The position numbers were made by a program, and so were the translations under genes. This document shows positions 43,036 through 54,854 of a stretch of DNA of 64,000 nucleotides, piece by piece. Position 1 is the stretch's first letter, and the number at the start of each line of letters is the position of its first letter. Under the pieces are notes generated by a model. The model was not told the origin of the DNA. It searched no databases and was given only the letters and a program-made list of their open reading frames with translations. Source of the stretch: Anaerolineae bacterium (GTDB taxonomy: Bacteria > Desulfobacterota > Desulfobacteria > Desulfobacterales > ETH-SRB1); contig DATKWZ010000016.1 in assembly GCA_035529315.1 (NCBI GenBank), forward strand, positions 88,464-152,463, read 5' to 3'.

Positions 43036-43112
43036 GGGGGTGTAGCTCAGTTGGTTAGAGCGCCGGCCTGTCAAGCCGGAGGTCGCGAGTTCAAGTCTCG
43101 TCACTCCCGCCA
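43036..43112 (+). tRNA. tRNA-Asp (anticodon GTC); integration target (attL side)
   Basis: GGGGGTG / TA / GCTC-AGTTGGTTA-GAGC / G / CCGGC-CTGTCAA-GCCGG / AGGTC / GCGAG-TTCAAGT-CTCGT / CACTCCC-G-CCA. Confidence 0.93.
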
Positions 43113-43113
43113 T
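43064..43113 (+). repeat. attL core (3' 49 nt of tRNA-Asp + 1)
   Basis: cggcctgtcaagccggaggtcgcgagttcaagtctcgtcactcccgccat is identical to 54805-54854. Confidence 0.92.
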
Positions 43114-43220
43114 AATAAAGTCAAGGGGTTACGAACAATTAACAATCCCTTTTTAAATGGGTAAAATTCAAATTCCAACCTCATTTCCAACCTATAAAAA
43201 CAATTTGTGGGTAATCAATT

Positions 43221-44054
43221 ATGGCAACCTACAGAAGAAAAAAAGATAGTGACACATGGCATTCGCATAAGGAATGCTCTAACTGGCCCATATCGGATTA
43301 TCAAGAACCAACAAGATATTGCAAAAAGTGTAACGAGTGTGTAGCTCTGGAGAAATTTGACAAGCAAGCACAAGATTTGCATGATACATCACCGCTGAAA
43401 AACATCCCGCATTGGTATATAGACTTAAGGTTTGATAATACTTTTAACGCTGATCCTAATCATATTTTAAGTCTTGAGACATACTGGGAAACAATAAGAT
43501 CATGTTCCTATATTTCGGCAGGTTATTATCGTCCTCATGTAAACTTAACACAAGGCTCTTATAGTCACAATAAAGGAACAGACGGTAAAGGAACAAACTG
43601 GATAGATTCACAGGATAACAATGAACTCATTGAATATTGGCGATTTCACAGCAACGGTCAATTTGTGCATTTCCTTTCAATTGAGGCCGAAAAGCAAAAC
43701 CAAATTGGAATCAATTCCATTAATAATACTATCAGAGACATTTTTAACTTTGCTGGCACATTAGCACAACATCTTAATGCCACCGCCTTTATTAAAATCC
43801 GAATAGTAAATATAAAAGGGTTCGTTCTTTATCAAGACGGGGGGTTACCTGTGTTTATTAATTCTTACCCAGCCTTTGAAGATCCTTGTCTTAATCCGAT
43901 AAAGCTGGACAAGACAGCCCTAACCTCTAAAGATATGGATAAACTCGCACGGGGAGCCACAGCTTCGATTTTTAAAAGCTTTAACGTTAATAATATCACA
44001 GAAAAAACTTTAAAGAAAATACAAAAAGATTTAAGGCCCCGCCATCTTGCTTAA
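43221..44054 (+). CDS. hypothetical protein with N-terminal Cys/His-rich motif (island cargo)
   Basis: 277 aa. The N-terminus is WHSHKECSNWP...YCKKCNEC. I recognise no family for the rest. It is followed by a strong terminator. Confidence 0.6.
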   Translation: MATYRRKKDSDTWHSHKECSNWPISDYQEPTRYCKKCNECVALEKFDKQAQDLHDTSPLKNIPHWYIDLRFDNTFNADPNHILSLETYWETIRSCSYISAGYYRPHVNLTQGSYSHNKGTDGKGTNWIDSQDNNELIEYWRFHSNGQFVHFLSIEAEKQNQIGINSINNTIRDIFNFAGTLAQHLNATAFIKIRIVNIKGFVLYQDGGLPVFINSYPAFEDPCLNPIKLDKTALTSKDMDKLARGATASIFKSFNVNNITEKTLKKIQKDLRPRHLA

Positions 44055-44094
44055 GATTAACCATCTCACTTATTTTGAAGGCCAGATAATAAAA

Positions 44095-44131
44095 CCCGGG
44101 CTCCATCACTGGAATCCGGGCTTTGATTTTT
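44095..44131. terminator. bidirectional rho-independent terminator between convergent cargo genes
   Basis: aaaaCCCGGGCTCCAtcacTGGAATCCGGGctttgattttt: an 11-bp stem with one mismatch. A-run on the left and T-run on the right. Confidence 0.7.
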
Positions 44132-44152
44132 AGGCTCGCCTATTGTGATCTG

Positions 44153-52643: not shown

Positions 52644-52879
52644 TATAAAACTCCCTTCAAAATTTCATTAATATCAACATTTTTGTATCCTGTCTTTTTT
52701 AAGCTTTTTATCGTCAAGAGCCGCTCAATGGTTGTTTCCGGCCAGTAATTACTTGCGCCATATCGGCCAAAAGACTTAAACTGTGGCACTGGTAGCCAGC
52801 CAGCCTTGACATATCGGGAAATGGTTTTACTGCTCAATCCCGTCATCTGCATCAATTTTTTTGTTCTTAATATCTTCAT
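52643..52879 (-). CDS. MerR/excisionase-like HTH protein, 78 aa
   Basis: LRTKKLMQMTGLSSKTISRYVKAGWLP is an HTH pattern. Confidence 0.6.
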   Translation of the reverse strand: MKILRTKKLMQMTGLSSKTISRYVKAGWLPVPQFKSFGRYGASNYWPETTIERLLTIKSLKKTGYKNVDINEILKGVL

Positions 52880-52928
52880 TTAAAAGTCCAAGTGTAGAAG
52901 TCAAAAGGTCAAATTTTTTTGCCTCTGC

Positions 52929-53120
52929 CTACAGCGCACCGGTTTCGATCTTGTGTGCTTCCATCCAATCAAGAACATCCTGCAATAGATATCTGACTGA
53001 CCGCCCCATCTTCACGTAAGGGAAGCCCCTGCCGCAATGTCTATCGTTGCGCAAGGTTTGCAAGGCACGGCATGTTATTTCGCAGACTTGTTTTTCGTTA
53101 ATATACTTTTTCATAGACAT
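52929..53120 (-). CDS. AlpA-family excisionase / transcriptional regulator
   Basis: YINEKQVCEITCRALQTLRNDRHCGRGFPYVKMGRSVRYLLQDVLDWM is the pattern of phage AlpA/Xis (HTH_17) proteins. It is adjacent to the integrase. Confidence 0.7.
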   Translation of the reverse strand: MSMKKYINEKQVCEITCRALQTLRNDRHCGRGFPYVKMGRSVRYLLQDVLDWMEAHKIETGAL

Positions 53121-53382
53121 TCACCCCATCAAATTTGTTTTCTTTTCTCCCAAAATGATGAAAACAAATGATTGTTTCAATCTTTTTTTGAAGATCACTG
53201 TTTTACTTTGCAATATTTTGGCAGTTGAAAACCTATAAGGCTAATAATATCAAGCAGATAATAGAAATTGAAATAATATAGGGTAAAGCAAAGGAAAAAG
53301 AAGTATGGTATTTTGTCTAAATTAAGGACTGGGGTGTGGTATTTACTAAAAAAATAAGGGGGGAATTTACTTCTTTAAAGGT

Positions 53383-54525
53383 TCACGGTCTTCCGATTTT
53401 GGATATATTTTTTACAGCATCGGCAACGATATTACCGGCCAGATTTGAAGCTGCCACAAGTGTTTCGTCTTGCAGGTGTGCATATCTCTGTGTCATTGCA
53501 GGGCCTTTGTGGGTTAGCAGTTTCTGGAGGGTGTACATATCGACCTTGCCTGAACTGGCAAGCATTGACGCAAAGACATGGCGAAGGCCGTGCAAGGGCC
53601 GGAACTTTGCAGGCAATCCAGCTTTTCTTTTTATCTTATTTATGGGTTTTGAAATATTTACTAACTGCTTGCCCTCACGTCCCGGAAATATAAAAGGGCT
53701 TTCCGTTCGTGGGTGATTTTTAAGCAGTTCTCTTGCGGCATCGTTCAGGGGGATTACTTGATCAGTGCCGCCCTTGGGATCTACAATATTTATAAATCCA
53801 CGGTCAAAATTAACGTGTTCCCATTTCAGTTTCAGCATTTCGGATCTTCTCATTCCAGAAAATAGCGCAAGTTTCATTATAGGCCCAGCTTGCGGGTGTA
53901 TGTCGTTATCAATGGCCTTCAATAAGTCTTTTATTTGTTCAGATGTTAAATCTTCAGTAACCAGGTTTGAGACTGTAGGTTTTTTGATACGGAAGGGAAG
54001 CCCAGGACATAAACCTTTTTTAATACCAAAGTTTGCGATCCAGGTGAGAAGGTTAAGAACATGTTTTACGGTTTGCGGTGATTTCTCTTTTAAAAGCTTT
54101 ATTCTAAGCCGGTCAATATCCAAGGCTAAAATATTTTTAGGTTCGGTATCACCAAAAGGGGCTTTCAAATACTTTTCATATCGGCCTAAATCAGTTTTAA
54201 GACTTTTGCCAGGTGTCCTGCCTTTGATATATTCATCAAAAAGCCTTTGGATTGTCAACTTGTCGGCCTCAGCCTCTTTGAGGGCATGCTCTTGTTTACG
54301 TTTCGCCTTTCGGGTTAATCTTTTGCCTTCGATTAATTCTGACCGTATATGTGCCGCCCTGGCCGGGGTCATGTCATCAGCATATTGACGCCCTGCTTTT
54401 TCTTCAAAAAGTTTGCCTTCCTTTTTATAGACAACATAAAAAACTTTTTCGCTCCCTTTGCCACCGATTCTTTTTGATTCCCGAAAAAATACCCCAGGAT
54501 ATGTTGTTTTTTTTCGCTTTGACAT
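53383..54525 (-). CDS. tyrosine-type site-specific integrase
   Basis: Catalytic residues in context: LFSGMRRSE (Arg), HGLRHVFAS (His-x-x-Arg) and TQRYAH (Tyr). N-terminal SAM-like domain. It lies ~280 bp inside attR. Confidence 0.93.
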   Translation of the reverse strand: MSKRKKTTYPGVFFRESKRIGGKGSEKVFYVVYKKEGKLFEEKAGRQYADDMTPARAAHIRSELIEGKRLTRKAKRKQEHALKEAEADKLTIQRLFDEYIKGRTPGKSLKTDLGRYEKYLKAPFGDTEPKNILALDIDRLRIKLLKEKSPQTVKHVLNLLTWIANFGIKKGLCPGLPFRIKKPTVSNLVTEDLTSEQIKDLLKAIDNDIHPQAGPIMKLALFSGMRRSEMLKLKWEHVNFDRGFINIVDPKGGTDQVIPLNDAARELLKNHPRTESPFIFPGREGKQLVNISKPINKIKRKAGLPAKFRPLHGLRHVFASMLASSGKVDMYTLQKLLTHKGPAMTQRYAHLQDETLVAASNLAGNIVADAVKNISKIGRP

Positions 54526-54804
54526 AAAACCTCCAATATTGTATTAATTGGATTATAATTTTAGCCGGAAACCTGTTTAACCCTCTGTGTTTACATGATA
54601 AATATTTCTTTGGTTTCCGGCTTGCAAGTCCCAAAGTTGGAAAAAGGCGGGAATTACTTTCCAACCCTATTTCCAACCTTTTTTCTATATATCAGAGTAA
54701 AAAAAAGTAAGTCAAGAAAAAAAGAAAAAAATAAATACTGTGATATTAATATGATATTAAGGGGGTTTAGTAAAAGAAGGTAAAAAGAGGTAAATTTAAG
54801 CTTA

Positions 54805-54854
54805 CGGCCTGTCAAGCCGGAGGTCGCGAGTTCAAGTCTCGTCACTCCCGCCAT
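54805..54854 (+). repeat. attR core (orphan copy of the tRNA-Asp 3' part)
   Basis: Identical to 43064-43113. The sequence in front (aaatttaagctta) has no tRNA 5' half. Confidence 0.92.

Follow-up and report, generated by a model that had tools for sequence, protein, structure and literature searches.

A satellite-like integrative element in tRNA-Asp of an uncultured Desulfobacterales bacterium, with a candidate module for entering phage capsid assembly

The recurrence of the 3′ part of a tRNA-Asp gene at two places nearly 12 kb apart in contig DATKWZ010000016.1 (assembly GCA_035529315.1) raises the question of what lies between the two copies, how it came there and how it might spread. To study this, we analysed a stretch of 64,000 nucleotides of the contig (positions 88,464 to 152,463, forward strand), hereafter called the window, in which positions are counted from the first letter. 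A previous sequence-only reading had described the segment between the copies, hereafter the island, as an integrated element whose interior was generic and non-housekeeping. The island is indeed accessory, but this description overlooked a conserved replication module and a conserved capsid-assembly module that is matched to particular phages. We conclude that the island is an integrative element of satellite-like make-up whose putative hijack module is undescribed, and not a demonstrated member of any named family. The best reading of its biology, to which we give a probability of about 0.6, is that of a helper-dependent phage satellite that enters the capsid assembly of its helper and remodels it. 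Loci used for comparison are designated by L and a number.

The island is a discrete insertion, present and absent in otherwise identical genomes

It is essentially certain that the island, an element of 11,741 bp, was inserted as a discrete unit into the 3′ end of tRNA-Asp(GTC), with duplication of the core of the attachment (att) site. The tRNA gene is called by both ARAGORN and Rfam, and a repeat search recovered, to the base, the proposed exact recurrence of its 3′ 49 nt plus one more base, with a start-to-start spacing of 11,741 bp. The 50-nt repeat runs from tRNA position 29, in the anticodon stem, through the CCA end and one T (coordinates of all features are in Table 1). By our own estimate, an exact 50-mer repeat is effectively impossible by chance in 64 kb (~1e-20). 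As had been claimed, no 5′ half of a tRNA precedes the distal copy, which has unrelated AT-rich sequence upstream and is not called as a tRNA by ARAGORN or Rfam; it is hence not part of a complete tRNA gene. The Rfam scan of the island returned two tRNAs only, together with a tmRNA-like match at the att fragment that stays below threshold (13 bits for a cut-off of 47 bits). Host genes resume at the repeat, which directly adjoins the stop codon of the NifX-like gene (54855-54857).

The empty site was found by looking up contigs that encode exactly the same NifX-like protein. One of them (L001, 144 kb, from the sister sample ENA ERZ27256828) is 100% identical to window positions 33114-43113 and 54805-64000 and contains a single copy of the 50-bp core, by which exactly its two alignments to the window overlap. 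The single core between identical flanks reveals a precise attB in an otherwise identical genome. A contig of ERZ27256827 (L002) crosses the same empty junction and ends 141 nt later, a length equal to the k-mer size of the assembler. The ancestral junction between tRNA-Asp and the NifX-like gene, which had been deduced from the occupied site, is thus observed in two assemblies with both flanks 100% identical. The occupied state was also found in ERZ27256834, in a 53.5-kb contig with the order NAD kinase, NifX, int (L126), and in JGI 3300031539, where an 11,945-bp contig starts at the junction of tRNA-Asp with attL (L124) and has int 406 nt from its other end (L128). The element has therefore moved very recently, being present or absent among otherwise identical genomes. 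Within the Desulfobacterales, the host resembles Candidatus Desulfaltia, its NAD kinase being 95% and its Lon protease 93-94% identical to those of metagenome-assembled genomes (MAGs) so named.

The sequence at the ends of the island is consistent with integrase-mediated insertion. A tyrosine integrase lies just inside the distal copy, as the sequence-only reading had it. The accompanying excisionase was less well named: helix-turn-helix (HTH) genes are present beside the integrase, while the AlpA label is weakly supported, the match of the 63-aa protein to HTH_17 being below the Pfam cut-off and that of the 78-aa protein to AlpA having an E-value of 0.009. The motif TTCCAACC occurs five times in the window, and four of these copies form two tandem pairs at the two island ends. 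Such pairs are kept at both ends of L015/L016 and beside int in L019-L021, all relatives of the island described below, and we regard them as candidate arm-type sites of the integrase. The island has a GC content of 38.2%, for 41.5% in the remainder of the window, and its tetranucleotide distance lies 11.7 standard deviations above that of host segments of the same length (z = 11.7), which agrees with a foreign origin. No other segment of 11.7 kb is outlying, a coarse test that is in line with the earlier claim of a single accessory segment.

Some related loci have other arrangements. In ERZ27256827, positions 1-875 of contig k141_4345548 (L003) correspond to what lies right of window position 54854. 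The island is followed here by an att copy in which a single base differs (T for C in CGTCAcTCCC) and then, where the NifX-like gene would be, by the 3′ end of a tyrosine integrase gene other than int (PF00589, E 2e-17). The mismatched att and the second integrase indicate two islands in tandem at tRNA-Asp in this sample, and three more contigs have the same arrangement. A non-canonical left junction occurs in ERZ27256828, at positions 1-1358 of k141_601199 (L123): the island is 100% identical from position 43162 on, its first 48 nt are absent, and the upstream flank (34% GC) has a ThrRS-like gene, a tRNA-Val(GAC) and no 50-bp core; the same sample has the empty tRNA-Asp site. The region downstream of tRNA-Asp also varies among Ca. 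Desulfaltia genomes (L022, 10900-13600; L024, 1177-6800), with extra genes for secreted proteins, an acetyl-CoA hydrolase-like gene, and a NifX-like gene that is displaced or absent. Hence, the tRNA-Asp locus is variable even without this island.

The island is one member of a conserved family

The full-length relatives of the island's S49 protease sit on small contigs, and these come from independent metagenomes: L015/L016 (JGI 3300042086 and 3300042087), L017 (ERZ25746585), L019-L021 (JGI 3300025642, ERZ27315495 and JGI 3300005916) and L119 (ERZ23498683). They share the gene order int, HTH, MerR, p193-p159, S49, p68, p122 and primase. Judged by this shared order, the element belongs with these loci to a conserved island family, ~12 kb in size, of uncultured Desulfobacterales. 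Relatives that carried the same block without flanking repeats would speak against an insertion; the divergent L015, an island of 12,537 bp, instead lies in tRNA-Asp in the same orientation and between the same 50-bp repeats, again exact. Other members use other tRNA genes, with a tRNA-Arg(CCG) fragment beside int in L019-L021 and a tRNA-Phe at the end of L119.

The family has exchanged modules. The primase of L015 is 80% identical to that of the window island and its S49 protease only 43%; in L119, a p122 of the type found in the window goes together with the second type of S49 and with a replication protein of another kind; L017 lacks a primase, and its integrase differs. The genes p193 and p159 correspond to the two halves of a single ~360-aa protein, which is fused in L015 and L017, and whose halves overlap by ATGA in L019. 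This protein family has 43 representative clusters among 1.84 billion proteins, mostly fused and of 340-380 aa; none of 27 members matched PHROGs, and the PDB gave only coiled-coil noise. The model of p193 built with AlphaFold2 from two sequences has a mean predicted local distance difference test (pLDDT) score of 61, with a core (residues 30-105) at ~80-88. In the window, p193 and p159 are in the same frame, with TAG and TGA between them (52044-52064) and a motif resembling a ribosome-binding site, GGGGG..GAGAAAAA, before the ATG of p159. Translation of p159 by stop-codon read-through from p193 was ruled out by these two in-frame stops.

The ratio of nonsynonymous to synonymous substitution rates (dN/dS) is 0.10-0.34, with saturated dS (>1), in every core gene for which dS can be estimated. 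By this measure, the core genes are under purifying selection and are not decaying. This argues strongly against the island being the cryptic remnant of a lambda-like prophage that has lost most of its genes and kept an integrase, an excisionase and a few head genes with which it still excises. Such a remnant would account for the prophage-like architecture of integrase and att sites and for the phage derivation of the S49 protease and p122. Yet, the same compact set of genes, ~12 kb long, recurs in at least five divergent lineages at dS >1 and dN/dS of 0.1-0.34, the island contains no pseudogenised fragments of capsid, portal, terminase or tail genes, p193-p159 and p68 are specific to the family and have no phage counterparts, and the derived C-terminal extension of the S49 protease occurs in none of 104 phage S49 proteins. 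We therefore regard a prophage remnant as very improbable.

A second alternative is a generic integrative and replicative island, plasmid-like or mobilisable, in which the phage-like genes are incidental cargo and which is transferred by conjugative helpers, by vesicles or by transformation. A contig of an Elusimicrobia MAG (MWCF01000074.1, L074) has the same backbone of int, HTH and AAA_25 genes (integrase match of 391 bits), lacks the S49/p122 module and carries instead a DNA methylase of 1042 aa. The head module thus behaves as a cassette, and both this and the presence of surface and secreted proteins among the cargo fit a generic island. Against this, the head module is a conserved core of the family rather than variable cargo, it co-varies with specific phages (see below), and no open reading frame (ORF) has a relaxase, an oriT-associated or a type IV secretion system domain. 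A generic island is, all considered, a quite unlikely explanation.

Further searches added few relatives. A single-protein scan with the S49 protease matched nothing among genome contigs and one ordinary phage (L006) among viral contigs. A search with the primase alignment in representative genomes, IMG/VR and JGI metagenomes found no new close relatives; L085-L087 are 47-66% identical and the rest are distant.

The head genes are matched to alleles of tailed phages

The protein p122 has 73 homologues of ~120 aa and belongs to no Pfam family. On long contigs, the homologues form part of tailed-phage virion modules (L007, 95 kb; L010, 102 kb; L012; and the IMG/VR contigs L115-L118), downstream of a candidate for the major head protein (phrog_29) and of two methyl/glycosyltransferase genes, and upstream of head-tail and tape-measure genes. 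The tree of p122 alleles has two clades, 50-58% identical to each other, and each of them mixes phages and islands at 80-87% identity. The p122 of the window clusters with the phages L007, L115 and L116 (80-81%), and those of the islands L015, L017 and L019 with the phage L117 (80-87%). At the DNA level, the similarity between island and phage is 77% and is restricted to the p122 ORF.

The S49 protease gives a second link. A fragment of the S49 gene of phage L117 encodes a protein 71-72% identical to the S49 proteases of the islands L015 and L017, and ends straight after the protease domain. A search of viral contigs with the S49 of L015, intended to reach the phage region upstream of L117, found nothing. 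In phage L006, the order is portal, S49, small head protein and major capsid protein. The island protease has a serine-containing motif (LAAS) and a lysine that align with MAAS and IKSG of Bacillus subtilis SppA; we take these two residues to be the catalytic dyad.

Phages and islands also occur together. Phage contigs with a p122 81% identical to that of the island are present in ERZ27256827 and ERZ27256828, the samples in which island and empty site were found; in ERZ23498683, the island L119 is accompanied by the phage contigs L008 and L010. Among the co-occurring phages are the contigs k141_2104759 and k141_4266955 and the ZHAN22-2 contigs scaffold_34 and scaffold_52.

The model of p122 (pLDDT 85) matches in Foldseek the jelly-roll domains of viral capsids and many small uncharacterised proteins of Caudovirales. 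Because its best matches among solved structures are capsid domains, p122 might be the single-jelly-roll capsid protein of a small, autonomous integrated virus. We consider this extremely improbable: the homologues of p122 are accessory proteins in tailed phages that have their own candidate for an HK97-type capsid, the island has no packaging ATPase, and the S49 protease with its scaffold-like tail belongs to the head assembly of tailed phages.

Other features of p122 and its neighbours were observed. It has six N-A-S/T triplets (residues 18-20, 43-45, 69-71, 83-85, 90-92 and 107-109), several of them nearly invariant in 49 homologues. In the phages L007, L010, L012 and L120, the p122 gene lies just downstream of a gene for a methyltransferase-glycosyltransferase fusion and of a Gtf3_C glycosyltransferase gene. 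From its sequence, p122 may be a glycosylated virion protein. In one phage of the group (L010, 10375-13766, and L011, 7355-10746), a diversity-generating retroelement (bAvd and reverse transcriptase) follows a 564-aa gene that is immediately 3′ of the p122 homologue.

The S49 tail shares a motif with a putative phage scaffold

The S49 proteins of the island type, and only these, have a C-terminal extension of ~100 aa. In hhalign, the last ~30 residues of this tail match the extreme C-terminus of a phage protein of 312 or 321 aa with an E-value of 5e-5, whereas the reversed control gave 0.35. The gene for this phage protein lies between that of the phage S49 and the gene of the capsid protein, the latter at 2335-3669 in L007; its product has a coiled-coil-like region at the centre and matches neither Pfam nor PHROGs. 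Examples of the island S49 ends are ...KAQADYELGQAVGKR and ...KAKVDYDLGQAIGRA, and of the phage protein ...KAQEEYALGQAIGRG... and ...TAQEEYDLGQKIGAG....

The shared part is a motif, DYEIGQMIG in the window island, for which we derived the family pattern [DE]Y.[LIM]G..[IVL]G. The pattern is present in 14 of the 14 full-length S49 proteins of the island type, where it sits 10-11 residues from the end (one over-extended gene call excepted), and in none of the 104 of the phage type. Across 1.42 million residues of six-frame ORFs from all the fetched loci, it was found only in island S49 proteins and in the phage protein of 312/321 aa. When the profiles of p68 and p193-p159 were compared with phage head proteins they matched nothing, and the S49 tail was the only one to match, in the 321-aa phage protein. 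The C-terminal motif of p159 (LKAxAxxYFI) has no phage counterpart.

There is a precedent for such sharing. The protein CpmB of the satellite SaPI1 has the C-terminal helix-and-hook motif of the scaffold of phage 80alpha and competes for the site of the latter on the capsid protein, which results in small capsids (PMC5644958).

Gene content and the conserved non-coding region

The nine genes from int, at attR, inward to the primase/helicase are all on the minus strand (Table 1). Ten ORFs of the island were scanned with Pfam and PHROGs, and the PEP-CTERM protein and p119 with Pfam only. Within this scope, there was no match to capsid, portal, terminase, tail, lysis or relaxase genes, nor to holin, head-tail adaptor or connector genes, nor to a packaging ATPase of any kind. 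PADLOC identified no defence system in the island, its matches to p159 being coiled-coil artefacts. The set as a whole, i.e., an integrase with two HTH proteins, a replicon of its own, a compact head module derived from phages, and no genes for autonomy, fits a phage satellite. The primase/helicase is 76-80% identical in L015, L019 and L020.

Table 1. Features of the island and of its flanks (window coordinates).
Feature	Coordinates	Strand	Basis and remarks
tRNA-Asp(GTC), intact, attL side	43036..43112	+	ARAGORN; Rfam RF00005, 74.7 bits; its 3′ 49 nt are the att core
attL, exact 50-bp direct repeat	43064..43113	+	Repeat search; one copy only in the empty sites L001 and L002
Tandem TTCCAACC x2, candidate integrase arm-type sites	43173..43193	+	Repeat search; 12-nt spacing, 60 bp inside attL
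p277, cargo, sole plus-strand gene	43221..44054	+	ORF; no Pfam, PHROG or PADLOC match; identical copies in other samples
PEP-CTERM secreted/surface protein, cargo	44153..44989	-	PF07589 E 3e-7; likely ATG start gives 261 aa, as in the gene call of L003
p119, small secreted repeat protein, kept in the island family	45008..45367	-	Homologues in L015/L016, L017 and L119; dN/dS 0.33
AT-rich region of 2.1 kb without convincing ORF; candidate origin and/or packaging and regulatory region	45368..47523	.	Conserved blocks
Two exact 21-nt direct repeats (AAAAAGTTGACTAAAATTCTT), candidate iterons/promoters	47389..47409, 47505..47525	+	Repeat search; 116 bp apart, at the 3′ end of the primase gene
Primase/helicase: Zn-finger, Toprim, AAA_25 (RecA-type helicase), C-terminal winged HTH	47524..49425	-	PF13481 E 3e-25; Toprim_2 weak; phrog_239 'DNA primase/helicase' E 3.5e-27
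p122, predicted 8-stranded jelly roll, 122 aa	49554..49922	-	AlphaFold2 model, pLDDT 85; Foldseek
p68, small conserved family-specific protein	50078..50284	-	44-50% identical in L015, L017, L019 and L119; no Pfam/PHROG match
S49 (lambda gpC/SppA-type) head-maturation protease	50415..51548	-	PF01343 E 5.5e-27; phrog_53 'head maturation protease' E 4e-83; aligns to SppA 3rst
S49 C-terminal extension, ~100 aa, island-specific	50418-50717	-	Covered by island-type homologues only
S49 C-terminal motif DYEIGQMIG	50427..50453	-	hhalign; pattern search
p159, coiled-coil C-terminal half of ancestral ~360-aa island-specific protein	51564..52043	-	Alignment
p193, N-terminal half of the same ancestral protein	52062..52643	-	Alignment; small alpha/beta core, then long helices
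merR78, 78-aa MerR-family HTH, candidate regulator	52643..52879	-	PF13411 (MerR_1) E 8e-8, above Pfam cut-off; AlpA E 0.009
hth63, 63-aa HTH, candidate excisionase/regulator	52929..53120	-	HTH_17 E 1.4e-3, below Pfam cut-off; phrog_66 'excisionase and transcriptional regulator' E 1.9e-5
int, tyrosine integrase	53383..54525	-	PF00589 E 5e-29; phrog_1 E 2e-58; 280 bp inside attR
Second tandem TTCCAACC x2, candidate arm-type sites	54659..54679	+	Repeat search; 12-nt spacing, ~130-145 bp inside attR
attR, exact 50-bp repeat; displaced tRNA 3′ fragment, not a tRNA	54805..54854	+	Repeat search; ARAGORN; Rfam
NifX-like (Nitro_FeMo-Co) host gene, outside the element	54855..55229	-	PF02579 E 2.7e-20

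The non-coding region between p119 and the primase has conserved blocks at 45485-45680, 45820-46122, 46431-46909, 46975-47187 and 47324-47519. At its primase end, the second copy of AAAAAGTTGACTAAAATTCTT overlaps the stop codon of the primase gene, and L020 has the identical pair with the same spacing. The patch of ~480 bp at 46431-46909 is 77% conserved in L017 and L119, and is thus common to members with different replication modules. Lacking a TerS (small terminase) gene, the island would depend for its packaging on a DNA site in this region, and the conserved blocks, above all 46431-46909, are candidates for such a site. The region has no blastn match in GenBank phages.

Several observations concern the ~480-bp patch itself. 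It is inverted in L017 relative to the flanking conserved blocks, and in L015 a gene for a serine recombinase lies where it would be. It contains TGTAAAGCCTT..ATAC in tandem as well as several TATAAT boxes, and has no ORF and no Rfam match. An RNA gene in the patch was considered and dropped, as RNAalifold gave no covariation support; an invertible switch is likewise unsupported, as a search for inverted repeats flanking the patch gave none that were convincing. Window positions 46440-46458 match exactly over 19 nt positions 3418-3436 of the co-occurring phage contig L120, inside a methyl/glycosyltransferase gene, which is borderline for chance (BLAST E-value of 0.004 in a small search).

A model of the island and its main rival

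These data suggest the following model. A helper from the group of large tailed phages found on contigs of ~95-100 kb would infect the cell and trigger the excision of the island by the integrase and the small HTH proteins. The island would then replicate, with the primase-helicase acting on the adjacent AT-rich region and its repeats. The tail of the S49 protein may mimic the C-terminus of the helper scaffold and so draw the protease into the procapsids of the helper. There, together with p193/p159, p68 and a helper-compatible p122, the protease would redirect or sabotage head assembly in such a way that the 11.7-kb DNA of the island is packaged and spread.

More tentatively, we propose that the hijack module is of a kind not described before. 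It would combine an S49 head protease, whose fused tail mimics the capsid-binding C-terminal motif of the helper's scaffold, with a jelly-roll virion protein that matches the helper's allele and a family-specific coiled-coil protein of ~360 aa; in the absence of TerS, packaging would depend on a DNA site within the 2 kb of conserved non-coding sequence.

The main rival of the satellite reading is a mobile island of anti-phage interference, in which the S49-scaffold mimic and the copy of p122 poison the capsid assembly of the matching phages and protect the host, while the island spreads by other means and is itself never packaged. Mimicry and allele matching fit sabotage as well as they fit piracy, and interference would also agree with the lack of a TerS gene and of any pac or cos site among the features found, and with the lack of island copies in collections of viral contigs. 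On the other hand, the island has a primase-helicase replicon of its own, which is typical of satellites that amplify before being packaged, and identical copies occur in several samples and sites, which indicates efficient transfer. Moreover, it matches no known defence family in PADLOC, and the known elements that remodel capsids are packaged too (PMC9618062; PMC12772148). On balance, we think pure interference unlikely.

A number of points weigh against the satellite reading. TerS is absent from the ten ORFs scanned with Pfam and PHROGs and, as far as Pfam goes, from the PEP-CTERM protein and p119; nothing recognisable as a pac or cos site was seen in the island; and neither the viral contigs of IMG/VR nor the GenBank phages contain a close relative of it. 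The motif common to the S49 tail and the phage protein is short (9 residues), with an hhalign probability of 67.6%, and the phage protein of 312/321 aa is a putative scaffold by virtue of its position and coiled-coil make-up only. The modelled fold of p122 would say no more than 'small jelly roll'. The candidate helper genomes were covered only as pieces of ~20 kb. The non-canonical junction of L123 could be a rearrangement, a recombinant with another member of the family, a second host or an assembly chimera. Finally, induction, capsid remodelling and packaging are steps that we infer.

Comparison with known satellites

The island has the traits of tRNA-targeting islands with a tyrosine integrase: the recombinase at one end, repeats of the tRNA 3′ end with the tRNA kept intact, and a precise empty site. 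We compared it with the families of satellites and related elements to which these traits might assign it.

The Gram-negative phage-inducible chromosomal islands (PICIs) have int, an AlpA/MerR regulator, pri-rep, capsid morphogenesis genes and TerS (PMC10085698). Under this definition, the island has an integrase, a MerR-type regulator and a primase-replicase and, if capsid morphogenesis is taken in a broad sense, thus four of the five functions; it lacks the small terminase, and contains no forbidden component. It resembles PICIs in its length of ~12 kb, its att repeats, its integrase, MerR/HTH and primase-replicase genes and its capsid-assembly module, and in having no tail, holin, portal or connector genes; its genes run mostly in one direction downstream of int, and both size and layout match the descriptions of satellites (PMC10085698). 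It differs in that no TerS was detected and the host is an uncultured member of the Desulfobacterales. Furthermore, S49, p193-p159, p68 and p122 are not known genes of the cpm or ppi type and have no Pfam or PHROG link to Cpm or Ppi, and the candidate helper is a phage of ~95-100 kb, whereas that of PICIs is a temperate phage of ~40 kb. The island is not a capsid-forming PICI (cfPICI), as it lacks its own genes for the major capsid protein, portal, head-tail adaptor/connector and terminase.

Two systems resemble the proposed mode of action. In SaPI1, CpmB is likewise a satellite protein that bears the short C-terminal motif of the helper scaffold (PMC5644958), but it is a dimeric scaffold of 72 aa, while the putative mimic tail of the island is fused to an S49 protease; the motifs also differ (DYxLGQxIG in the island, RIIK in SaPI1). 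The other system is phage lambda itself. Its head protease gpC belongs to the S49 family, the C-terminal part of gpC overlaps the scaffold Nu3, and the gene for a small head protein comes next. As in gpC/Nu3, the S49 domain of the island is joined to a scaffold-like C-terminal region. However, the S49 proteins of the candidate helpers end after the protease domain and their scaffold-like protein is a separate gene, so that the fusion is specific to islands; nor does the island have portal and capsid genes such as those on either side of gpC in lambda-like phages.

The remaining families are less similar. The PLE of Vibrio cholerae (~18 kb) parasitises ICP1 (~126 kb) and remodels its capsid by means of a scaffold of its own (PMC10945586; PMC12772148). 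The ratio of sizes resembles that of an 11.7-kb island to phages of ~95-100 kb, but in PLE the recombinase is a large serine one, the genes for replication and hijacking are unrelated, and there is no sequence relationship to the island, whose integrase is a tyrosine recombinase; the marker genes of PLE were not searched for. P4-like elements share with the island the integration into tRNA genes by a tyrosine integrase, a multidomain primase-helicase with a C-terminal DNA-binding domain beside a repeat-bearing non-coding region, and the lack of TerS, P4 using the cos site of its helper. They differ in that the island has no match to psu, sid, delta or epsilon (Pfam and PHROGs) and that its helicase is a RecA-type AAA_25 and not of the P4 alpha type. 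PICMIs are described as elements of minimal gene content without capsid-remodelling genes (PMC10803314), which does not correspond to an island of 11.7 kb with a head-assembly module. A complete tailed prophage, such as the phage locus L006 illustrates, would have capsid, portal, terminase, tail and lysis genes, which the island lacks. Among the marine VEIMEs, some serine proteases are reported, and no capsid remodelling (PMC9618062). Our search of the literature found no publication that links S49 proteases to satellites.

Implications

The known phage satellites come almost all from cultured Proteobacteria and Firmicutes, with a few from Actinobacteria, and reviews hold that many satellite families are still undiscovered (PMC10085698, PMC12772148). 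The case presented here is unusually testable from sequence, given the pair of occupied and empty sites, the family members with swapped modules, the contigs of candidate helpers in the same samples, and a motif of nine residues. If the island is a satellite, then the biology of satellites would reach the uncultured relatives of marine sulfate reducers, anaerobes that are environmentally important, and their helpers would include a class of phages of ~100 kb. The S49 protein would then represent a new device of piracy, a maturation protease targeted to the procapsid of the helper by mimicry of the scaffold tail. Were the island to act by interference only, it would still be a new kind of defence, one that targets capsid assembly.

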